Shown one piece after another: positions 8,234 to 21,555 of a stretch of DNA of 64,000 nt (positions are counted from its first letter, which is position 1; every line of letters begins with the position of its first letter). This DNA is from Armatimonadota bacterium (GTDB lineage: Bacteria > Armatimonadota > SYMT01), in contig JBKBRF010000017.1 of assembly GCA_046292385.1 (NCBI GenBank), forward strand, positions 32,001 through 96,000, given 5' to 3'. The notes below the pieces were generated by a model. It ran no database searches, was not told where the DNA came from, and saw only the letters and a list, made by a program, of their open reading frames with translations. Position numbers and translations under genes: made by a program.

Positions 8234-9868
8234 ATGACCCAGTACCTGAAGAACGTTTTTTCCGCGCGTCAGACGCCGCAGTCGGAGCCGATCCCCGGCT
8301 CCGGGCAGGTGCCGAACAGCGCGGGCGGGTTCGCCTGGCAGGTCGACGATTGGGCCCGCCTCGATCGCTTCCTGATCCTCGGCAGCGAGGGTGGGTCGTA
8401 CTACGCCTCCGAGCGGAAGCTGACGCTGGAGAACGCGGACGCCGTGGTCCGCTGCCTGGAGGCGGACGGCGAGCGGCTGGTCCGCCGGGTGGTCGAGATC
8501 AGCGAGTCCGGCCGGGCGCCGAAGAACGACCCGGCGATCTTCGCCCTGGCGCTGGCGTGCTCCTTCGGCGACGAGCGGGCGCGCGCGGCGGCGTTCGCGG
8601 CGGTGCCGCGGGTCTGCCGGATCGGGACGCACCTGTTCCACTTCGCGGAGTTCGTAAACGGGATGCGCGGCTGGGGACGCGGGCTGCGGCGCGCCGTGGC
8701 GGCCTGGTACCAGGAGAAGCCGGTGGGGGCGCTTGCGCTGCAGGCGGTGAAGTACCAGCAGCGGGACCGGTGGAGCCACCGGGACCTGCTCCGGCTGGCG
8801 CACCCGGTGCCGGCGGACGAGGACCGCACCGCCCTCTACCGCTGGGTGACCCGCGGGTGGGAGCCGGAGCGGGCGGACCGGTTCGGCCGCGAGGGCGAGC
8901 TGGCGCTGGTCGGCGGCTTCGAGGCGGTGAAGGCGGCCGCCACGGCGGCGGAAGTGGCGGAGTGCATCCGCACCTACCGGCTGCCGCGGGAGGCGGTCCC
9001 GACGCAGTGGCTGACCGACCGCGAGGTGTGGCGGGCGCTGCTGGAGGAGATGCCGATGACCGCGCTGATCCGGAACCTGGCGACGCTGACCCGCGTGGGG
9101 CTGGTGACGCCCGGCTCCGTGGGGACCCGGAAGGTGGTGGAGCAGCTCGGCGACCGGGAGCGGCTCCGGAAGGCGCGCGTGCACCCGATCCAGGTGCTCT
9201 CCGCGCTGAAGACCTACGCCTCCGGCAAGGGCGTGCGCTCCGACCAGAGCTGGGCGCCGGTGCCGCAGGTGGTCGACGCGCTCGACGCGGCGTTCTACGC
9301 GGCGTTCCGGAACGTGGAGCCGACCGGCAAGCGGTGGCTGCTGGCGCTCGACGTCTCCGGCTCGATGGAGTGCGGAGTGATCGCCGGGTGCCCGGGGCTG
9401 ACGCCGCGGGTCGCATCCGCCGCCATGGCGCTGGTCACGGCGGCGGTGGAGAAGCAGTACACGGCGGTAGCGTTCGCCTCCGAGGGGACCTTCGGGTGCC
9501 GGAGCGGGAGCGGGCTGCGGCCCCTGGCGCTCTCCTCGCGACAGCGCCTGGACGACGTGGTGAAGCTGACGCAGGCGCTGCCGTTCGGCGGCACCGACTG
9601 CGCGCTGCCGATGCTCTACGCGCTGGAGCGGAGGCTCGAGGTCGACTGCTTCGTGGTCTACACCGACTCGGAGACGTGGGCCGGAAGCGTCCACCCGGCG
9701 CAGGCGCTGCGGCAGTACCGGGAGTGGATGGGGATCCCGGCCCGGCTGATCGTGGTCGGCATGGTCTCCAACGGGTTTAGCATCGCGGACCCGAACGACC
9801 CCGGCATGCTTGACGTGGTCGGCTTCGACACCGCCACGCCGCAGCTGATGACGGACTTCGCCCGCTGA
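8234..9868 (+). CDS. rsr: Ro60/TROVE-domain RNA-binding protein with vWA domain
   Basis: QVPNSAGGFAW, RLDRFLILGSEGGSYY, KYQQRDRWSHRDLLRLAHP, MPMTALIRNL, ARVHPI, LALDVSGSM, GGTDCALPM, YTDSETW, DPGMLDVVGFD; GAGGAGG RBS. Confidence 0.97.
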   Translation: MTQYLKNVFSARQTPQSEPIPGSGQVPNSAGGFAWQVDDWARLDRFLILGSEGGSYYASERKLTLENADAVVRCLEADGERLVRRVVEISESGRAPKNDPAIFALALACSFGDERARAAAFAAVPRVCRIGTHLFHFAEFVNGMRGWGRGLRRAVAAWYQEKPVGALALQAVKYQQRDRWSHRDLLRLAHPVPADEDRTALYRWVTRGWEPERADRFGREGELALVGGFEAVKAAATAAEVAECIRTYRLPREAVPTQWLTDREVWRALLEEMPMTALIRNLATLTRVGLVTPGSVGTRKVVEQLGDRERLRKARVHPIQVLSALKTYASGKGVRSDQSWAPVPQVVDALDAAFYAAFRNVEPTGKRWLLALDVSGSMECGVIAGCPGLTPRVASAAMALVTAAVEKQYTAVAFASEGTFGCRSGSGLRPLALSSRQRLDDVVKLTQALPFGGTDCALPMLYALERRLEVDCFVVYTDSETWAGSVHPAQALRQYREWMGIPARLIVVGMVSNGFSIADPNDPGMLDVVGFDTATPQLMTDFAR

Positions 9869-12939: not shown

Positions 12940-13011
12940 GGATGCCTCTGCACTCCGTCCTTCAACGAGCGTTAGCGTTCTCCGTCCTCTTCTCGCAGGG
13001 AGGCGGTGGCG

Positions 13012-13992
13012 ATGGCGCAGATTGTGGCGGAGGGGCTGGCGAAGACGTTCTACGTCTCGGAGCGGGAGCCGGGCTTCTGGGGGGCGGCGCGGGGGTTGGT
13101 GCGGCGGCGGCAGCGGAAGGTCTGCGCGCTGGACGGCATCTCGTTCCGGATCGAGCCGGGCGAGCTGGTGGGGTACATCGGGCCGAACGGCGCGGGGAAG
13201 TCGACCACCATCAAGGTGCTCGCCGGGATCCTGGTGCCCGACTCCGGCCGGTGCGAGGTGATGGGCCGGGTGCCCTGGCGCCAGCGGATCGAGCACGTCT
13301 CCCGGATCGGCGTCGTGTTCGGGCAGCGGACGCAGCTCTGGTGGGACCTGCCGGTGGTTGAGTCGCTCGAGCTGCTCCGGGACATCTACCGGGTGCCGCC
13401 CGCGCTCTACCGCCGCACGCTGAACGAGCTGGTGGAGCTGCTCGACCTCGCGCCGCTCCTCGATACGCCGGTGCGCCAGCTCAGCCTGGGCCAGCGGATG
13501 CGGTGCGACCTCGCCGCGGCGCTGGTCCACGCGCCCGAGCTTCTTTTCCTGGACGAGCCGACGATCGGCCTCGACGCCGTCTCCAAGCTGGCGGTGCGTG
13601 ACTTCGTCCGGCGCCTCAACCGGGAGCGGGGCGTCACGGTGCTGCTCACCACGCACGACATGGACGATATCGAGGCGCTCTGCACCCGCGTGATGGTGAT
13701 CGGGGGCGGCGCGCTGCTGACCGACGGCACGCTGGAAGAGCTCCGCGCGCGGGTGACCCGGGAGCGGTGGTTGATCGTCGACCTGGAAGATGGCTCCGGG
13801 GAGCTGCACGACCCCGCGGCGCAGGAGATGCGGCGGGAGGGCCAGCGGGTGAGCCTGCGCTTCGACCCTTCGGAGGTCGCTCCCGCCGAGCTGATCTGCC
13901 GCATCGCGGCCCGGTACCGGGTGCGGGACCTCTTCGTCCAGAACCCGCCGATCGAAGAGATCATCGCACGGCTCTACGGAGCGCCGGCGTGA
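13012..13992 (+). CDS. ABC exporter ATP-binding protein
   Basis: GPNGAGKST, LSLGQRMR, LFLDEPT, LTTH. Confidence 0.95.
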   Translation: MAQIVAEGLAKTFYVSEREPGFWGAARGLVRRRQRKVCALDGISFRIEPGELVGYIGPNGAGKSTTIKVLAGILVPDSGRCEVMGRVPWRQRIEHVSRIGVVFGQRTQLWWDLPVVESLELLRDIYRVPPALYRRTLNELVELLDLAPLLDTPVRQLSLGQRMRCDLAAALVHAPELLFLDEPTIGLDAVSKLAVRDFVRRLNRERGVTVLLTTHDMDDIEALCTRVMVIGGGALLTDGTLEELRARVTRERWLIVDLEDGSGELHDPAAQEMRREGQRVSLRFDPSEVAPAELICRIAARYRVRDLFVQNPPIEEIIARLYGAPA

Positions 13993-14780
13993 AGGGGTAC
14001 GGGTCGGTCTTTCAGGCGCGCTTCCGCCTCCTGCTCCAGTACCGCGCCGCCGCCACGGCCGGCTTCGCCACCCAGCTCTTCTGGGGGCTGATCCGCGTCA
14101 TGATCTTCGACGCCTTCTACCGCCAGGGCGGGGGCGAGCAGCCGCTCAGCTTCCCGGAGGTGGTGACCTACGTCTGGCTGGGCCAGGCGACTCTGGCGCT
14201 GACGCTGGGCGGGGCGGAGGCGGAGATCCGGGCGATGGTCCGCTGCGGGACGGTCGCCTACGAGCTGGTGCGCCCACTCGATCTCTACGGGTTCTGGTAC
14301 TGCCGCACGTTGGCCGGGCGCGTGGCGCCGATGCTGCTGCGCGGCGTGCCGCTCTACCTGGCGGCACTGCTGTTCTTCGGGCTCGGCCCGCCTGCCGGTC
14401 CGGAGGCGGCGCTCGGGTTCGCCGCCTCTCTCGCCGCCGCGGTGCTGCTGGCCGGGGCGGTCTTCATGCTGATGAACGTCTCGCTCTTCTGGACCGTCTC
14501 CGGCGAGGGGGTGGCCCGCTTCGGCCCGGCGCTCATCTACGTCTGCTCCGGGCTGCTGGTGCCGCTGCCGCTCTTCCCGGAGTGGGCGCGCGCCGCGCTC
14601 GGCTTCCTGCCGTTCCGCGGCCTGGCGGACGTGCCGTACCGGATCTACCTGGGTCACCTGCCGGCGGAGGCGGTTCCCGGCCTGCTGCTGCACCAGCTCG
14701 CCTGGACGGCGGCCCTGGTACTCTTCGGACGGTATCTACTCGCCCGCGCGGCCCGGCGCCTGGTGGTGCAGGGAGGCTGA
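13989..14780 (+). CDS. ABC-2 family exporter permease
   Basis: GTGA overlap with the ATPase stop; LLQYRAA, GTVAYELVRP, SGLLVPLPLFP...FLPF. Confidence 0.88.
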   Translation: MKGYGSVFQARFRLLLQYRAAATAGFATQLFWGLIRVMIFDAFYRQGGGEQPLSFPEVVTYVWLGQATLALTLGGAEAEIRAMVRCGTVAYELVRPLDLYGFWYCRTLAGRVAPMLLRGVPLYLAALLFFGLGPPAGPEAALGFAASLAAAVLLAGAVFMLMNVSLFWTVSGEGVARFGPALIYVCSGLLVPLPLFPEWARAALGFLPFRGLADVPYRIYLGHLPAEAVPGLLLHQLAWTAALVLFGRYLLARAARRLVVQGG

Positions 14781-14881
14781 GCGGTGCTGAAGCTCGGCAT
14801 CCGTGGGGCCGCGAGGCATTGAGATACCTCGCTGGACGGCCTGCGGCCACGCGTCCTCCGGACGCCCGAATCGAGCCCTCT

Positions 14882-14932
14882 CAGTCCGCGAAGGCGGACT
14901 TCGCGCCGTCGTTGCCGCGGTTTCAACCGCCC
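14882..14932 (+). repeat. REP-like palindromic dispersed repeat, copy 2
   Basis: CAGTCCGCGAAGGCGGACTTCGCGCCGTCGTTGCCGCGGTTTCAACCGCCC, between two permease genes. Confidence 0.8.
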
Positions 14933-14954
14933 GGTCTTCCATCAAACAACCGTC

Positions 14955-15758
14955 ATGCTCAACTCCCTTCACCTCTACCTCCGCTACCTCGCTCTCTCCG
15001 TCCGGGGGCAGATGCAGTACCGCGCCTCCTTCCTGATGTTGACGGCGGGACACTTCCTGCTCACCGGAACGGAGTTCCTGGGCGTCTGGGCGTTGATGGA
15101 GCGCTTCGGCGGGCTCCGGGGCTGGCGGCTGCCGGAGGTGGCGGTGCTGTACGGCGCGATCAACGTCTCGTTCGCGCTGGCGGAGGGGGTGGGGCGGGGA
15201 TTCGACATCTTTTCTCAGCAGGTAAAGTCGGGCGACTTCGACCGGCTCCTGCTGCGGCCGCGGAGCACCGCGTTCCAGGTGGCGGCTTCGGAGGCGCAGC
15301 TCTTCCGGGTGGGGCGGCTGGCACAGGGGGCGCTGATCCTGGCGTGGGGGCTCGCGTCGGCGCCGATCGACTGGAGCCCCGCCGCGGCGCTGCTGGTGCC
15401 GGCGATGGTCCTCGGCGGCGCCTGCCTCTTCTACGGGCTCTTCGTGCTCCAGGCGACGCTGGCGTTCTGGACCGTCGATTCGCTGGAGGTCTTCAACACG
15501 GTCACCTATGGCGGCATCGAGACGGCGCAGTACCCGCTGGAGATCTACCGGCCCTGGTTCCGCCGCTTCTTCACCGTGGTGGTGCCGCTCGCCTGTGCCA
15601 ACTACCTGCCGGTCCACGCGCTGCTCGGCCGCCCGGATCCGTTCGGAGCTCCGCCGCTCCTCCAGTGGGCCGCGCCCGCGGGCGGGCTCCTGTTCCTGCT
15701 CGTATGCCTCCGGGTCTGGAAAACCGGAGAGCGCCGCTATTGCTCCACCGGAAGCTGA
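14955..15758 (+). CDS. ABC-2 family exporter permease
   Basis: QMQYRASF, GDFDRLLLRP, QYPLEIY, RYCSTGS. Confidence 0.9.
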   Translation: MLNSLHLYLRYLALSVRGQMQYRASFLMLTAGHFLLTGTEFLGVWALMERFGGLRGWRLPEVAVLYGAINVSFALAEGVGRGFDIFSQQVKSGDFDRLLLRPRSTAFQVAASEAQLFRVGRLAQGALILAWGLASAPIDWSPAAALLVPAMVLGGACLFYGLFVLQATLAFWTVDSLEVFNTVTYGGIETAQYPLEIYRPWFRRFFTVVVPLACANYLPVHALLGRPDPFGAPPLLQWAAPAGGLLFLLVCLRVWKTGERRYCSTGS

Positions 15759-15935: not shown

Positions 15936-18053
15936 ATGGTTGAGACGAACCCGCAAACGCTGGCGCTGGTAAGAATGGCCGTGGCCCGTGTCGCCTCCGA
16001 TCCGGAGGACGAGCAGCGCTATCTGGAGCTGAACTGGGCGCTGGACCGGGCGGTGGAGCGCGATTTCCGCTACCGGGAGCTGCTGGCGATCTTCGAGGAA
16101 GGCGCCGCCACCGCCGCGGAGGATGTCTCCTGGGCCTGGTGGCTCGCCGCCGGCCTGGGGGGGAACCTGACCGGGGACTCGGAGCGGGCCACCCACCTGC
16201 TGGAGCAGGCGCGGCGGGAGCTGGAGGCGCAGGGCCGCGACCACACCGCCATCGGCTCCTTCACCTGCGGAGAGCTGGCCCGGGCCTACTACCACTGCGG
16301 CGGCGCCCCGGCGGAGGAGGCGGCCACCCGCGGCCTGCAGCTCGCCCGCTCCGCCAACTCGCCCCTGGCGGAGGGCTACGCCCATCACTACCTGGGGCTA
16401 ATCCTGGTCCGGCGGCGGGAGTACGACTACGCCCGGCGCCACATCCTGGCCGCGCGCGAGCTGTTCGAGCGGATGAAGCAGCGCCACGGCCGCGCGCGCG
16501 TGCTCGATTCTCTGGCCAGCCTGGAGATGGACCTGGGGCACTACGAAGTCGCCCGCCAGCTCCTGGAGGAGAGCCTGGGGGTGAAGAGCGAGTTCCGCGA
16601 CCTCCGCGGCCAGGCGCTCACCTGCTCCAACCTGGGGCGGCTCTACACCGGCCTGGCGGACTACTCCCAGGCGCTCCACTACCTGGACCGCGCCCGGGAG
16701 CTGAGCACCCGCGTGGGAGACGAGCGGACCGCCACTCTGCTGCGGATCCGCCTGGGCGAGCTGCACCTGCGGCACAACCACGCGGAGCTGGCGCGAGTGG
16801 AGCTGGAAGCCGCCTTCCGCATGGCGCGAGACCGCCACGACGAGATGCTGGTGGCGACCGCCTGCTTCGCCCTGGCGGAGGCGGAGCGCCGCCTGGGGCA
16901 CTATCCCGACGCGCTGCACTCGATCCGGCTGGCGGAGCGGTTCTTCGGGAAGAGCGACGACGTGGTGATGCGGGACCGCGTGGCGCTGCGCCGCGCCCTG
17001 CTGGAGGGGGTCGACTTCGAATCGTCACGGGTCGAGGGTCCGCTCAACCGGCTGCGGGCCTGCGACGCCTCCGGCGCGCTGGCCGACGCGCTCTTCGAAG
17101 CGGCCAGCTTCTTTCACGAGCGAGGGCGCGTGCAGCAGGTGGCGGCGCTCTACGCCGAAGCGCTCGACGCCGCCGAGCCGGCGCAGGCGATCCAGCTTGC
17201 GGAGCAGATGCGCAGCCGGGCCGAAAGCGTGGAGGGGCGCGCGTGGGTCGACGCGATGCTGAACGTCAAGCACCACAAAGACGAGCTGGAGCAGGCGTAC
17301 GGGGAGCTGCGCCGCGCCGAATCGCTGCGGGACGCGCTGACGCAGATGATCGTTCACGACCTCAAGAATCCGCTCACCGCGATCACTCCCTGGCTCCAGA
17401 CGATCCAGATGGGCGGTCTCTCGGAAGACGAGACCGAGTCGGTGCTGCAGACGGTGATCGATGAGTGCGACTACCTGCTCCGCACCATCGAGGACCTGAA
17501 CGACGTCGGGAAGATGCAGCACGAGCGCACGCTCGACCTCTCCCTGGAGCGGCTCGACCTGACCGAGCTGATGAACGAAGTGGCCCGCCGGCTGCAGACC
17601 CGCGCCCGCGATGCCGGCATGACGATCCGGTGCGACTGCCCCCGGGCCTCGCTGCTGCCGGTCCGAGGGGATCGCTCCAAGCTCCGCCGCGTGCTGGAGA
17701 ATCTGGTCGCCAACGCGATCAAGTACGGCCGGCCCGCCGAGGGCTCCGGCCTGCCGGCGGAGGTGGAGATCCGGGCGCGCGTGGAGCCGCCGCCGCCGGA
17801 CGGGGGCTCTCCCTCCGTACGGGTCGAGGTGTGCGACTTCGGTCCCGGGATCCCGCTGGCGGAGGCGGAGCGAGTCTTCGAGCCGTACTACCAGGCCGAA
17901 GCCGGCCGCAAGCGCAAGGCCGGGGTCGGCCTGGGCCTCGCCTTCTCCCGCATGGTGGTCCAGGCGCACGGCGGCGCCCTCTGGACCGAGCCGAATCCTC
18001 ACGGCGGCAGCGTCTTCGCCTTCCGCCTCCCCGCCGAGGACCTCTCGAGCTGA
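15936..18053 (+). CDS. Soluble TPR-repeat sensor histidine kinase
   Basis: N-terminal TPR array without TM segments; H box HDLKNPL, N box NLVANAIKY, DFGPGI, GVGLGL. Confidence 0.9.
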   Translation: MVETNPQTLALVRMAVARVASDPEDEQRYLELNWALDRAVERDFRYRELLAIFEEGAATAAEDVSWAWWLAAGLGGNLTGDSERATHLLEQARRELEAQGRDHTAIGSFTCGELARAYYHCGGAPAEEAATRGLQLARSANSPLAEGYAHHYLGLILVRRREYDYARRHILAARELFERMKQRHGRARVLDSLASLEMDLGHYEVARQLLEESLGVKSEFRDLRGQALTCSNLGRLYTGLADYSQALHYLDRARELSTRVGDERTATLLRIRLGELHLRHNHAELARVELEAAFRMARDRHDEMLVATACFALAEAERRLGHYPDALHSIRLAERFFGKSDDVVMRDRVALRRALLEGVDFESSRVEGPLNRLRACDASGALADALFEAASFFHERGRVQQVAALYAEALDAAEPAQAIQLAEQMRSRAESVEGRAWVDAMLNVKHHKDELEQAYGELRRAESLRDALTQMIVHDLKNPLTAITPWLQTIQMGGLSEDETESVLQTVIDECDYLLRTIEDLNDVGKMQHERTLDLSLERLDLTELMNEVARRLQTRARDAGMTIRCDCPRASLLPVRGDRSKLRRVLENLVANAIKYGRPAEGSGLPAEVEIRARVEPPPPDGGSPSVRVEVCDFGPGIPLAEAERVFEPYYQAEAGRKRKAGVGLGLAFSRMVVQAHGGALWTEPNPHGGSVFAFRLPAEDLSS

Positions 18054-18514
18054 TTCGCGCCCCGCTGCGCGCCTCGCGAGCTCCGCACCCGTCCGCCGCC
18101 CCGGCCCGGCTTCCCCGGCCCGGACCGCCAACCGAGCAGCCGCCTGTAAAAAAAGCGCTCCTCATTCAATCGATTGGCACGGCTCTTGCTTACTCATTCA
18201 TCCGGTTGACAGAATGGCCCATTCGGTGGACGAGCAGGCAGGCCTGCGGATCGCGCCGAAAACGCCAGAATGAAGTAGGAGCGCACGATTGGCCGGTCGG
18301 ACAGCGAGAACTGTCCGGTTGACCAAACGGCCGGCCCCACGCAGAGGGTAACCTGAACGGGTAGCCCACCCTCCGTGAGCTGCGAAGCTTGAAGCGATTT
18401 GGGAGCCCCGATTCCGGAGCTCCCGGCGAGCGAGTGCCCGTAGTACGGCGCGCGCCCCGCACTCTGTGAACGAGCCGCCGGCGGAGACCCTGCCGGCCAA
18501 GAAATGGTGAGAAG

Positions 18515-20533
18515 ATGCATCGATCCCTGAGCATCCTGGGGGTTGGGCTGGGGCTGACGGCACTGGCGGCGGGAACCTCCGGTGTCCGAGCGGGAGCTTC
18601 CGCTTCGGTCACTCTCCCGCCGGCGCTGAAGGCGAAGCTGGCGTCCAACCTTTACCGCGCCGAGGCGCGGGCGGGACGGCGAACCTACATTGTTCAGTTC
18701 CGCGACGCGAAGCGCGGCCTGGAGCTGGTACGACGGAGCGGGGCTACCGTGGAGCACGCGTTCAGCGTGCTGCCGATGGCGAGCGTGACCGCGGCTCCCG
18801 ACGAGCTGAACCGGCTCCTGGCTTCCTCCGAGGTGACGAACGTCAGCTCGGACGCCACCGTGAAGAAGTCGATGGAGTTCGCGATCCCCGCCGTGCGGGC
18901 CGACATGCCGCACAAGGTCGGCTTGAAGGGCAGCGGCGTCACGGTGGCAGTGATCGATAGCGGCATCGCCAATCACTGGGACATCCGCGAGGATCGCTCC
19001 GGGCAGCGCCAGAGCCGGGTGCTCGCCGGAGTGGACTTTGTCAAAGGTGGGTCCAGCACGGCGATGGGCAACGACGAGTGCGGTCACGGCACGATGGTTG
19101 CCGGGATCGCGTGCGGCGACGCCACCTCCAGCACCATGAACACCGATCGTGCCTGGAACACCCGGCACTTCTTCGGCGTGGCGCCGGCTACCAGCATCCT
19201 CAACCTGCGCGTGCTGGACAAGCACGGGCAGGGCACGGTGACCAACGCCATCAAGGCGCTGGAGTGGTGTATCCAGAACAAGACGAAGTACAACATCCGC
19301 GTCGTCAACATGTCGCTCGGCCATCCGCCGTTCCAGAGCTATCTGGAAGACCCGCTCTGCCAGATGACGGAGCAGGCGTGGAAGGCGGGCCTGGTGGTGG
19401 TGTGCGCGGCGGGGAACCGCGGCCGGGCGGTGGCGAACGACCAGAACGGCGGTGCCCGGTACGGCACGATCAACAGCCCCGGCAATAGCCCGTACGTGAT
19501 CACGGTGGGCGCCACGCGGGACAGCGGGACGGTCACCACGGATGACGACTGGGTCGCATCCTACAGCAGCCGCGGGCCGACGCGCATCGACCACATCGTG
19601 AAGCCGGACCTGGTGGCGCCCGGCAACCGGATCATCAGCCTGCGGCACCCCGGCAGCGAGTTGGAGCGCGTGGCAGGCGGCACCAACCTGATCGAGAACT
19701 GGTACTACTGGCAGCGGAAGAACGACAAGGACGTGAACGGCACGTCCAAGGACTACTTCCACCTGTCCGGGTCCAGCATGGCGGCGGCGGTGGTTTCCGG
19801 CGCGGCCGCGCTGATGGTCGGCCTCGATCCGTCGCTGACGCCGGACACGGTGAAGGCGCGCCTGATGCTTACGGCCCGCAGCGAGTGGCGCGCGGACGGC
19901 CAGTCGCCGGACATCTTCAGCCGCGGCGCGGGGCTGCTCGACGTAGACCGTGCCCTCCGCTGCCGGGTGGTGGCGACGCGGCCGGCCCTCTCTCCTTACG
20001 TCTCGCGGCACGAGAGCACGCTGACGTTCTACTACGGGCGAGGCCTGGGTGGAGAGGAGACGTTCTGGAGCGGCCTGGGTGTCCAGGCGCACCAGGCGCT
20101 CTGGAGCGACGACACGCCGAAGTCGTCCACCGGCACCTACCCCGGCTCGGGCGGGACCAGCACCTATCCGGATATGTCGTACTACGATCCCAAGAAGTAC
20201 ACGTACAATCCGGACGACTACAAGTCGCAGGCGCTCTGGAGCGATCAGGCGCTCTGGAGCGACGACGCCCCGCGTGCCCAGGCGGACACGGCGCAGGCGC
20301 TCTGGAGTGACCAGGCGCTCTGGTCCGACGGTCCTGCCGCGCAGGCGGAAGCGCAGGCGTTGTGGAGTGATCAGGCGCTCTGGTCGGACAGCCCGGCCGA
20401 CGCCATGCAAGAGCTCCAGAACTGGGCGCAGCAGGCGCTCTGGTCGGACGATAAACCTCGCAGCGATAGCGGGGAGCTCACCCAAGCACTCTGGTCGGAC
20501 GTGTTCCGAGTGTCCGTTCTGGGGGACGAATGA
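18515..20533 (+). CDS. Secreted S8 (subtilisin-family) serine protease with nine C-terminal QALWSD repeats
   Basis: Signal peptide, I9-like prodomain, triad VAVIDSG / GHGTMVAG / SGSSMAA, oxyanion AAGN, KPDLVAPG. Confidence 0.93.
   Translation: MHRSLSILGVGLGLTALAAGTSGVRAGASASVTLPPALKAKLASNLYRAEARAGRRTYIVQFRDAKRGLELVRRSGATVEHAFSVLPMASVTAAPDELNRLLASSEVTNVSSDATVKKSMEFAIPAVRADMPHKVGLKGSGVTVAVIDSGIANHWDIREDRSGQRQSRVLAGVDFVKGGSSTAMGNDECGHGTMVAGIACGDATSSTMNTDRAWNTRHFFGVAPATSILNLRVLDKHGQGTVTNAIKALEWCIQNKTKYNIRVVNMSLGHPPFQSYLEDPLCQMTEQAWKAGLVVVCAAGNRGRAVANDQNGGARYGTINSPGNSPYVITVGATRDSGTVTTDDDWVASYSSRGPTRIDHIVKPDLVAPGNRIISLRHPGSELERVAGGTNLIENWYYWQRKNDKDVNGTSKDYFHLSGSSMAAAVVSGAAALMVGLDPSLTPDTVKARLMLTARSEWRADGQSPDIFSRGAGLLDVDRALRCRVVATRPALSPYVSRHESTLTFYYGRGLGGEETFWSGLGVQAHQALWSDDTPKSSTGTYPGSGGTSTYPDMSYYDPKKYTYNPDDYKSQALWSDQALWSDDAPRAQADTAQALWSDQALWSDGPAAQAEAQALWSDQALWSDSPADAMQELQNWAQQALWSDDKPRSDSGELTQALWSDVFRVSVLGDE
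20093..20500 (+). repeat. Nine coding repeats of QALWSD
   Basis: CAR GCR YTS TGG (AGY/TCS) GAY x9, including three tandem doublets. Confidence 0.95.
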
Positions 20534-20715
20534 AAATGCGAAAACGAGTTGCATCCCATCGTGGCGTCCGCTCGACACTACTTCCGATGCTGAAGTATCT
20601 GGTCGTAGGACTCCTCCTCGCCGGCGTGGCCCTCGCTCCGGTCACGGCCCACGCGGCTGGCTGCGCCGGGGACTCGCCGAAGCCTCAAAAAACACAGGTT
20701 CTCTGGAGCGACTAA
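20530..20715 (+). CDS. Small secreted peptide ending in QVLWSD (alternative start 20587, 42 aa)
   Basis: ATGA overlap with the protease stop; hydrophobic signal MLKYLVVGLLLAGVALAPVTAHA with an AHA cleavage site; C-terminus matches the protease repeat. Confidence 0.75.
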   Translation: MKMRKRVASHRGVRSTLLPMLKYLVVGLLLAGVALAPVTAHAAGCAGDSPKPQKTQVLWSD

Positions 20716-20743
20716 CCGCTTTCAGGGTTCCGGAACGCGCACC

Positions 20744-20779
20744 GGACAGCCCGGCCTCCACCTGGAGGCCGGGCTGTCC
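20744..20779. terminator. Strong GC-rich hairpin between convergent genes
   Basis: GGACAGCCCGGCCTCCA-CC-TGGAGGCCGGGCTGTCC; no U-tract. Confidence 0.6.
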
Positions 20780-20871
20780 TGCGTACGGCTGCGGAGCTCA
20801 GTGGGAGAGTGAGAGAGTGGGATCCGGGGCCGGCCGTGTGGCGCCGGTCTCCCGGATCCCCGGCGCACCGT

Positions 20872-21555
20872 TTAGAGCTGTTTGAGGTGGAAGTCTTTGA
20901 ACTGCACCTTCATCGGCGGGCCCTGGTGGAGCTGCAGCGCGAGGATGCCCTCCGCCGCGCGGCCGTCGGTATCCTCGTCCGTCGTCTCGGCCGTCACCAC
21001 GCCGTTGATCTCGTGGCGGAGCTGGTTGCCGCGAGCGACGAGGTGGTACTCGTTCCACTCCCCTTTCCGCACCGCCGCCTTGATCTTCTCCGGGTCTCCC
21101 ACGGTGCCCACCACCTTCGGCTTGCCGTCTTCTCCGATGACGGTCCGCTGTCCCGGCTCGGCCAGGACGCCGCGTCCGCGCTCCTCGTAGATCAGGCCGT
21201 TCCAGCGGTCGCCGGCTTCGAAGTCGGCCTGGTAGCCTGCCACCACCCAGTTGCCCAGGTGCTTGCTGCGGTACTGGATGCCGGAGTTGCCGCCTTCGAT
21301 GCGGAACTTCACCCGGAGGTCGAAGTCCTTCAGCGTGCCGCCCTTCCAGATCAGGAAGGTGTTCTGCGGCGTGGGGCGGTCCGGCGTGGTGGTGCCGGTC
21401 AGGGCGCCGTCCTGCACGGACCAGAACTTCGGATCACCGTCCCAGCCGGTCAGGTCCTTCCCGTTGAAGAGGCTGCGGGAATCGGGCTGGGCGGCAGCCA
21501 CGGTCGCGGCCGCGAGGGCGACCAGCGCGGTAAGGGAAATCAGGCGATGAGCCAT
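20872..21555 (-). CDS. DUF1080 (3-keto-disaccharide hydrolase) protein, secreted
   Basis: SLFNGKDLTGW, GNSGIQYR, GYQAD, GEWNEY, GILALQLH. Confidence 0.92.
   Translation of the reverse strand: MAHRLISLTALVALAAATVAAAQPDSRSLFNGKDLTGWDGDPKFWSVQDGALTGTTTPDRPTPQNTFLIWKGGTLKDFDLRVKFRIEGGNSGIQYRSKHLGNWVVAGYQADFEAGDRWNGLIYEERGRGVLAEPGQRTVIGEDGKPKVVGTVGDPEKIKAAVRKGEWNEYHLVARGNQLRHEINGVVTAETTDEDTDGRAAEGILALQLHQGPPMKVQFKDFHLKQL

Follow-up and report, generated by a model that had tools for sequence, protein, structure and literature searches.

A kinase, a protease and a small open reading frame

The stretch of DNA analysed here (the window, 64,000 nucleotides) comes from the 7.04-Mb genome of an Armatimonadota bacterium with 69% G+C. 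In it, the genes for a histidine kinase and a secreted S8 subtilase are followed by a small open reading frame (ORF) whose product ends in QVLWSD, a near copy of the hexapeptide QALWSD that is repeated in the tail of the protease. The ORF is neither a chance frame nor a frameshifted remnant of the protease. It is best read as a real gene of 61 codons, probably transcribed together with the S8 gene from a sigma-54 type promoter and coupled to it in translation, and the hexapeptide (polar-small-aliphatic-Trp-Gly/Ser-x) as a putative recognition unit of these proteases that other proteins can carry as well. Comparable mini-genes occur in other soil bacteria and hint at a peptide-and-protease signalling device that has gone undescribed. 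The features of the locus are as follows.

15936..18053, forward strand: soluble histidine kinase of 705 residues with TPR, HisKA and HATPase domains (Pfam), no membrane segment being seen
18175..18190, forward strand: sigma-54 type promoter motif, TGGCACGGCTCTTGCT, the sole match in the window, 325 nucleotides before the protease start
18515..20533, forward strand: secreted S8 subtilase of 672 residues with signal peptide, propeptide-like domain, catalytic domain and repeat tail (Peptidase_S8, E = 5.8e-48)
20093..20500, forward strand: protease tail with 9 QALWSD units (singles and doublets) and variable linkers, from a listing of the units
20530..20715, forward strand: small ORF of 61 residues, then TAA, with an ATGA overlap with the protease stop
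20530-20655, forward strand: signal peptide of the small-ORF product, residues 1-42, as read from the sequence
20656-20694, forward strand: linker of the small-ORF product, including Cys45, read in the same way
20695-20712, forward strand: unit QVLWSD, the last six residues before TAA
20744-20779, no strand assigned: perfect 16-bp hairpin with a 4-nucleotide loop, terminator-like and without a T run (folding)
20872..21555, reverse strand: convergent DUF1080-type gene (3keto-disac_hyd match)

The small ORF as a gene

The product of the small ORF, MKMRKRVASHRGVRSTLLPMLKYLVVGLLLAGVALAPVTAHAAGCAGDSPKPQKTQVLWSD, has 61 residues and starts at an ATG that shares the letters ATGA with the TGA of the S8 gene. 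It consists of a basic n-region, a hydrophobic core (residues 23-38), the sequence AHA (residues 40-42), Cys45 in a Pro/Lys linker of 13 residues, and QVLWSD at residues 56-61 with TAA immediately after. The N-terminal part is a predicted Sec-type signal peptide, which fits a layout of Sec signal plus short C-terminal peptide. A first-pass annotation of this DNA had described the ORF, its ATGA overlap, the AHA signal, the QVLWSD end and the hairpin, and was correct in every detail. Lipoprotein signal peptides end in the lipobox pattern [LVI][ASTVI][GAS]C; the lipobox here reads A-A-G-C45, so that position -3 is Ala and not Leu, Val or Ile.

The G+C content of the ORF by codon position is 0.69/0.48/0.65, and that of neighbouring genes about 0.7/0.5/0.9. 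The position-2 value is coding-like, in contrast to 0.73-0.80 in the overlapping frames. Downstream, folding of 20700-20800 yields -64.1 kcal/mol (z = -6.9), and 0 of 200 shuffled sequences were as stable. The hairpin was not listed by a consensus terminator scan because it lacks a T run, and Rfam gave no match at E <= 1 across 17900-21000.

Could the unit at the end of the ORF have arisen by chance, or be left over from the protease? The pattern Q[AVIM]LW[SG]D has only 12 matches in the 14,085,906 six-frame codons of the genome: nine in the window tail, one in the small ORF, one in the tail of a paralogous S8 protease (contig C38) and one elsewhere (contig C16). The first-pass annotation had named a frameshifted remnant of the protease 3' end as the explanation that would overturn its proposal. 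This candidate is ruled out: a single unit lies downstream, the protease frame reads no units beyond its stop, and the conserved C-terminal end of the protease, VFRVSVLGDE, is intact, so a tail remnant does not fit. When Q-x-L-W-S-D-stop was sought in five genomes of the family, it was found in the small ORFs of the window and of a related genome (G005, below) and in one 9-codon frame, with 3 matches in the reversed control. The 9-codon frame, Q-A-L-W-T-D-stop on contig C46, is intergenic with no S8 gene nearby and was taken as chance. The C16 match reads Q-V-L-W-G-D (C16:52507, reverse strand) and lies outside S8 tails and the small ORF.

The repeat tail of the protease

All nine QALWSD units, arranged as singles and doublets, fall within the last 150 residues of the protease. 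The residues before the unit Q are H, S, D, A, D, A, D, Q and T, and those after the unit D are D, Q, D, Q, G, Q, S, D and V; as these flanks vary, the unit runs from Q to D, and the small ORF ends exactly at such a boundary. The units vary synonymously, with Ser encoded by AGC, AGT, TCC and TCG. The use of both AGY and TCN codons implies that it is the peptide, and not the DNA, that has been kept. The tail is followed by the short end VFRVSVLGDE, which is retained family-wide. By its features the window protease is one of the Trp-tailed S8 proteases: it is exported, has x-x-aliphatic-Trp-Gly/Ser-x units arrayed at its C-terminus and finishes in a short conserved G-D/E end. Five Trp columns are invariant or nearly so in an alignment of 90 protease sequences.

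With this alignment, AlphaFold2 gave a mean predicted local distance difference test score (pLDDT) of 78 and was confident to about residue 520, through the propeptide-like and catalytic parts; a run with 9 sequences was too poor for use (mean pLDDT 52.6). In the tail, pLDDT fell below 50 at residues 535-631 and 647-667, low confidence being no proof of disorder. On this model, which shows no folded domain there, the tail is likely disordered, as would suit a series of linear motifs. A complex prediction with S8 residues 127-510 and peptide residues 32-61 (90-row alignment) scored 0.04 against a mark of 0.32; run without controls, it counts neither way. At the propeptide junction, the candidate P1 residue is Ser with LWGS or LWGG units in 8/8 cases of one clade and Asn with N-units in 2/6, and otherwise mostly Asp whatever the unit, a comparison that is confounded by kinship.

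Orthologous loci in Armatimonadota

A search with the protease covered 41 genomes of the phylum. Its two best matches (56-57% identity; genomes G005 and G004) retain the block of kinase, S8 protease and small ORF. In G005 (locus L002, identical to L031), the kinase upstream of the orthologous protease is, like that of the window, a TPR kinase, and is 64% identical to it, while the S8 protease is 56% identical to its window counterpart. The small ORF of this genome has 36 codons, begins 17 nucleotides past the S8 stop with an AGGAG ribosome site, and ends in SQILWSD-stop followed by a hairpin. In G004 (locus L003), a signal-like ORF begins 5 nucleotides past the protease stop; it includes SQMLWGD and is cut off 11 codons on by the end of the contig. 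The N-terminal parts of the three small ORFs cannot be aligned and only the unit is common to them, its codons differing synonymously (AGC/AGT, GAC/GAT). The presence of such an ORF at orthologous loci had been proposed as a check on the first-pass annotation; small one-unit ORFs are found at both loci and also beside Acidobacteriota S8 genes.

The flanks of the block differ between genomes, and the conserved set is therefore kinase, protease and small ORF. An ABC-2 exporter at 13006..15758, upstream of the block, was dropped from the module, since it is not kept in L031. A query with the single protease returned no loci in genome contigs and 1 unrelated locus in metagenome contigs. Farther upstream, the window holds a Ro60/TROVE-type gene with TROVE and Ro60 vWA domains (8234-9868, forward strand); Y-RNA-like partners often lie near such genes.

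Mini-genes beside proteases of Acidobacteriota

When an alignment of nine proteases served as the query, 73 more loci were recovered from Armatimonadota and Acidobacteriota. Their tails use lineage-specific dialects of the unit, such as SVIWGN, SVVWGQ, SAVWGS and NAIWGD, and tandem duplicates of the S8 gene are common in the family. ORFs ending in [LIVMAFST]W[GSA]x-stop numbered 12/1297 on the S8 strand within 600 nucleotides, compared with 30/10542 elsewhere outside S8 genes. A tail-like unit is present in 11/12 of the ORFs near S8 genes; the ORF at L009, which has no such unit, looks like chance.

The mini-genes of Acidobacteriota encode 33-43 residues, with a Lys/Arg n-region and a hydrophobic core followed by ASAVWGS. 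They are located upstream or downstream of the S8 gene and at times occur as two in tandem. The following are from Terriglobales-type Acidobacteriota.

L051:5768-6024: ASAVWGS mini-genes
L099:5616-5861: ASAVWGS mini-genes
L048:3486-3614: ASAVWGS mini-gene
L073:2698-2826: ASAVWGS mini-gene
L050:3635-3766: ASAVWGS mini-gene

A profile built from 7 mini-genes matched 112 clusters at E <= 10, and 95 at E < 1e-3, in a collection of 5.8 billion proteins; these are 'hypothetical proteins' of 29-76 residues. The 59 cluster members that were fetched all end in ASAVWG[S/N/G], save one with a 13-residue extension, and form four subtypes with unrelated N-terminal carriers. One subtype has …LLAIAC or …LVIGC before the unit (Gly replaces Cys in P0062); the other Acidobacteriota subtypes lack the lipobox-like Cys. 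In the 33-residue forms, the unit directly follows the hydrophobic helix.

The Acidobacteriota mini-genes are under purifying selection. For the two paralogous mini-genes compared between L051 and L099, the ratio of non-synonymous to synonymous substitution rates (dN/dS) is 0.24 and 0.14, and the last 8 codons show 3 synonymous against 1 and 0 non-synonymous changes. These genes comprise little besides an export signal and one unit, and their conservation indicates that a single unit is functional alone. In the five source genomes, ASAVWGS-stop is confined to these sites (2, 2, 0, 1 and 1 matches; control 0). In a census of 301 genomes, true matches were restricted to the starting genome and the reversed control gave 4 matches; matches in G253 and G276 were rejected, having no S8 gene nearby and no ORF of at least 25 residues. 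Longer small ORFs of 74-128 residues lie between the S8 gene and a MASE9-HD-GYP-GAF-GGDEF gene at L097:5631-5969, L052:5534-5920 and L102:5683-5907 (all forward strand), and bear one to three units that are not C-terminal.

A unit that follows the local tail

Does the unit of a small ORF match the protease beside it? Over 13 loci, the unit resembles its own tail more than the tails of other loci: the summed best identity of each unit to its own tail is 57/78 (permutation p = 0.0005, kinship ignored), and the two residues after the Trp match the own tail in 21/26 cases (p = 0.01, kinship ignored). The co-variation of peptide and tail that the first-pass annotation had put forward as a check is thus seen across loci, and its view of Q(A/V)LWSD as a functional unit is backed by these one-unit carriers matching their local tails.

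Small secreted proteins that would start with the unit after removal of the predicted signal form a second class of carrier. In G004, such a gene (L003:2451-2837, reverse strand) lies between the kinase and an S8 protease with 15 QALWSD units; its product has a twin-arginine signal ending …AAA and then reads QALWSDGP. In the genome of the window, the gene at C38:32561-32941 (forward strand) encodes …ALA|HFVWGESP and is convergent with a paralogous S8 gene whose tail contains AHILWGEP twice. The pattern H[FILVM][LVIM]WGE occurs at exactly these 3 sites of C38 in 14.09 M codons of the genome. The two secreted proteins are homologous (39-41% identity), belong to no Pfam family and are the only two of their kind in 7 family genomes. 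A further carrier is a MASE9 membrane protein of 461 residues (L058:5414-6796, forward strand) that ends in …DSAVWGS-stop; about 130 nucleotides downstream of its gene begins an S8 gene with SAVWGS and SAVWGD units. The protein looks like a sensor that carries a tethered unit. The unit therefore behaves as a short linear recognition motif: whether it stands C-terminally, at the start of a mature protein or in a tandem array, it matches the neighbouring protease.

Sensors, promoter and transcripts

Which proteins might sense the peptide? Among 1.84 billion representatives, a single cluster is truly orthologous to the TPR part of the window kinase. In a sequence comparison with the PDB, the nearest relatives of this part are the peptide-binding TPRs of LGN/Pins, and RapI appears only at E = 0.0048 (19 bits). 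The kinase carries generic TPR_12/TPR_2 matches and is not a receptor of the Rap, NprR, PlcR, PrgX, Rgg or AimR type. No MASE9 match was found beside the window protease. The three MASE9 matches of the genome are on contigs C44, C38 and C27, and those on C44 and C38 follow paralogous S8 genes. The Acidobacteriota mini-gene loci and one Armatimonadaceae genome are flanked by genes for MASE9, MASE9-HD-GYP-GAF-GGDEF(-PilZ) or sigma-54 activator-PilZ proteins. MASE9 is an orphan sensor domain, for which its describers, Galperin and Chou (bioRxiv 10.1101/2021.11.05.467447), propose intramembrane ligand binding.

The sigma-54 motif TGGCAC-N5-TTGCW at 18175-18190 is unique in the window, and none turned up in 100 shuffles. 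Similar motifs precede S8 genes at L031:3749, L013:3331 (reverse strand) and, for the paralog of the same genome, C38:34990 (reverse strand); there are 11 genome-wide. On contig C52, rpoN is adjacent to the sole strong activator gene of the genome. With motif, rpoN and activator present, the block is a candidate sigma-54 dependent operon with a predicted promoter. The motif is 325 nucleotides from the start codon and the leader would therefore be long.

A metatranscriptome contig of 481 nucleotides (X9; 96% identical, 19 differences) spans 20260-20740: it covers the tail and the complete small ORF and ends 4 nucleotides short of the hairpin. It is only a hint of co-transcription, because DNA can occur in RNA libraries. 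Contigs identical to the window over 20361-20719, and with 0 differences in the stretch 20361-20900, are also present in soil and root metagenome runs from three further studies (X2, X4 and X5), which implies that the same strain-level sequence is widespread.

Proposed function and alternative explanations

We tentatively propose, while rating the idea as somewhat short of an even chance, a signalling module linked to the protease, in which the peptide would be the exported arm with a single unit and serve as a pheromone-like ligand, broadly in the manner of Phr. The product would combine a Sec-type, possibly lipoprotein-type, export signal with the 13-residue Pro/Lys linker and one tail hexapeptide as a free C-terminus. 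After export, it might lose its signal at AHA|A or be lipidated at Cys45. The unit with its free carboxylate would bind the same site as the tail units, most likely the substrate cleft of the protease and otherwise a linked sensor. The peptide could then act as a short pheromone-like ligand whose output is tied to protease production. The signalling end would be the neighbouring TPR kinase here and MASE9 sensors in other lineages, if the direction of the signal is read correctly. A wider proposal, which we consider unlikely, is that Trp hexapeptides may form a linear-peptide signalling language of diderm soil bacteria (Acidobacteriota, Armatimonadota), with poly-pheromone tails on the subtilases, mini-genes of 33-61 codons for hardly more than a signal peptide and a pheromone, orphan MASE9 proteins and TPR kinases as receptors, and cyclic di-GMP, sigma-54 and phosphorelay outputs.

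Several observations weigh against a pheromone-like ligand. The window kinase is cytoplasmic. To reach it, a peptide that is exported like the tail would have to be brought back in, and the scanned neighbours of the block include no Opp-type importer. The small ORF of G005 has no hydrophobic signal segment, and either export is not universal or this copy differs or is decaying. The first-pass annotation had compared the ORF with the exported precursors of Phr and PapR peptides; the layout of signal plus C-terminal peptide bears this out for the window, while the G005 ortholog means that an exported precursor fails at some loci. Residues follow the unit in the G004 ORF and at L052 and L102, and a free C-terminal carboxylate is therefore not always present. 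Distribution is also sparse: only 2 orthologous loci were found in the 41 genomes searched, one-unit or few-unit small ORFs are sporadic (about 13 of some 80 Trp-tailed S8 loci), and true matches to the ASAVWGS form were absent from a sample of 300 additional genomes of the class. The tail units of Acidobacteriota (SVIWGN, SVVWGQ and others) vary more than the mini-gene unit SAVWGS does, a pattern that would suit a pheromone no better than a competitor or a distinct ligand. Finally, the third-position G+C of the small ORF is low beside that of its neighbours, and the ORF has no relative in the 5.8-billion-protein collection (3 candidates, none scored), an absence that is also consistent with the earlier expectation that gene callers would miss it. 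Matches in the ESM Atlas were all <= 0.82 and uninformative.

The constancy of the mini-gene unit would equally be expected of a single high-affinity copy that regulates the protease as a product mimic. On this account, which we regard as rather unlikely but deserving of weight, the free …LWSD end would fill the S4-S1 pockets of the protease like a cleaved propeptide, and competition with the tail units would keep the enzyme latent or free the tail, with no message passing between cells. Subtilisins prefer a hydrophobic P4 and a small P2 residue, and the aliphatic/Trp/small/x pattern of the unit fits this preference. Moreover, no partner other than the S8 gene is found at all mini-gene loci (a sensor is missing within 4 kb at L050), and in the window the start of the small ORF is translationally coupled to the S8 stop and its end coincides with a unit boundary. 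A strict mimic would not, however, allow carriers that extend past the unit or bear it N-terminally, and the propeptide junction is unlike the unit, the candidate P1 tracking its last residue within one clade only. Alternatively, the peptide might stay in the membrane as a dock or as a small modulator of a sensor, in the manner of MgrB, a small membrane regulator of a sensor kinase. An uncleaved anchor or a lipid on Cys45 would then display one unit for the tail or the sensor. Such tethering would suit the Cys after A-A-G in the window, the …LLAIAC or …LVIGC subtype, the 33-residue forms with their unit next to the hydrophobic helix and the MASE9 protein with a unit at its own C-terminus. The intramembrane ligand binding proposed for MASE9 (bioRxiv 10.1101/2021.11.05.467447) is in line with it too. 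The Cys, however, is not invariant, being Gly in P0062 and absent from a second subtype; position -3 of the window lipobox is atypical, the G005 form has no hydrophobic segment at all, and the window sensor is a soluble kinase and not a membrane protein. We judge a tether quite unlikely.

It is very unlikely that the ORF is a functionless chance frame in 69% G+C DNA that holds a unit left over from a rearrangement of the tail or of tandem S8 genes. Such an origin would account for the third-position value of 0.65, for the failure of sequence searches to find a relative, and for three Armatimonadota N-terminal parts that defy alignment, one of them without a signal; with tandem S8 duplicates so common in the family, deletions could leave pieces of this kind. 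Yet three genera retain the amino acids of the unit in synonymously different codons, twice with the stop directly after it, and the motif is otherwise almost absent from the genome. The coding-like second codon position, the ATGA coupling and the hairpin right after the stop also argue against a functionless frame, as do the analogous mini-genes that are under purifying selection in another phylum. Least probable of all, and in our view extremely unlikely, is a ribosomally synthesized and post-translationally modified peptide (RiPP), in which QVLWSD would be a core behind a leader, modified for example on its Trp and freed by the subtilase as leader peptidase. A leader with a C-terminal core beside an S8 protease is a layout of this type, and S8 leader peptidases exist for lanthipeptides. 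Pfam scans for RiPP enzymes covered 13 proteins of the window and L003, 5 of L031 and 25 of ten other loci; no radical-SAM protein, YcaO, LanB/C/M, cyclase, prenyltransferase or other maturase was found near the window locus, L031 or the ten other loci, and the RiPP-like core suggested by the first-pass annotation is accordingly without a modifying enzyme among the scanned neighbours. In addition, the N-terminal part is a classical Sec signal and not a leader, and the same unit is repeated within the tail of a large enzyme.

Significance and relation to known systems

The Trp-repeat tails of these proteases, which are widespread in soil bacteria, and the MASE9 sensors that adjoin them have no known function or ligand. 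In full-text literature, we found no paper with SAVWGS, ASAVWG, QVLWSD or QILWSD, no relevant words of the ALWGD/ALWSD type, and nothing on Trp repeats of acidobacterial subtilases. The exact peptides for synthesis can now be named (AGCAGDSPKPQKTQVLWSD, QVLWSD and QALWSD here, and ASAVWGS in Terriglobales), which makes the question amenable to reporter assays and to direct assays of binding and cleavage. Should the units be signals, ribosomal linear-peptide communication would extend to diderm phyla for which none has been described. The wider signalling language, if true, would be the first such system outside Bacillota-type RRNPP and Agr, and would provide the first MASE9 ligand. If the units are instead protease tags or inhibitors, they would offer a new way to address substrates to a subtilase or to silence it. 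The mini-genes also illustrate that functional genes of 33-61 codons get missed or stay 'hypothetical'.

How does the block compare with known peptide systems? Enterococcal and streptococcal pheromones are hydrophobic peptides that Eep and PptAB process and that cytoplasmic RRNPP regulators detect. The precursors of iCF10/PrgQ, iAD1, SHP and ComS, of about 20-35 codons, consist of a hydrophobic export segment and a C-terminal peptide of 7-8 residues. The 33-residue ASAVWGS genes are likewise little more than an export segment and a peptide, but the conserved end is here polar, has one Trp and is a copy of the repeat of a protease tail. The small ORF is, by its predicted features, not an RRNPP member.

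In fungal precursors processed by Kex2 (alpha-factor MFalpha1, KEPs), the repeats are part of a separate protein that has dibasic cleavage sites. Both systems combine an S8-family protease with one short peptide in tandem copies, whereas the repeats described here are the C-terminal tail of the protease itself.

The Phr systems of Bacillota (Rap-Phr, NprR-NprX, PlcR-PapR) offer a further parallel. In PMC11343458, Phr propeptides are described as having a Sec signal and, at the C-terminal end, a short active peptide, typically a penta- to hexapeptide; extracellular proteases help to mature the peptide, and tandemly duplicated pheromone copies exist. The small gene with a Sec signal and a short C-terminal peptide, the TPR-containing sensor gene in the same block (PMC11343458) and the occurrence of tandem small genes are shared with the loci described here. 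In contrast, the phylum of the window and Acidobacteriota are diderm and not Bacillota, and the TPR protein of the window is a histidine kinase encoded two genes upstream and not a receptor of Rap, Rgg or PlcR type. No Opp importer is evident among the scanned window neighbours, and the Acidobacteriota sensors are membrane MASE9 proteins. Also unlike Phr, the window protease itself bears nine copies of the unit in its tail. Among the related systems are also the MASE9-paired Trp-tailed S8 subtilases. The window protease is one of them, and MASE9 genes follow two of its paralogs elsewhere in the genome; the window locus differs in having a soluble TPR kinase in place of MASE9.

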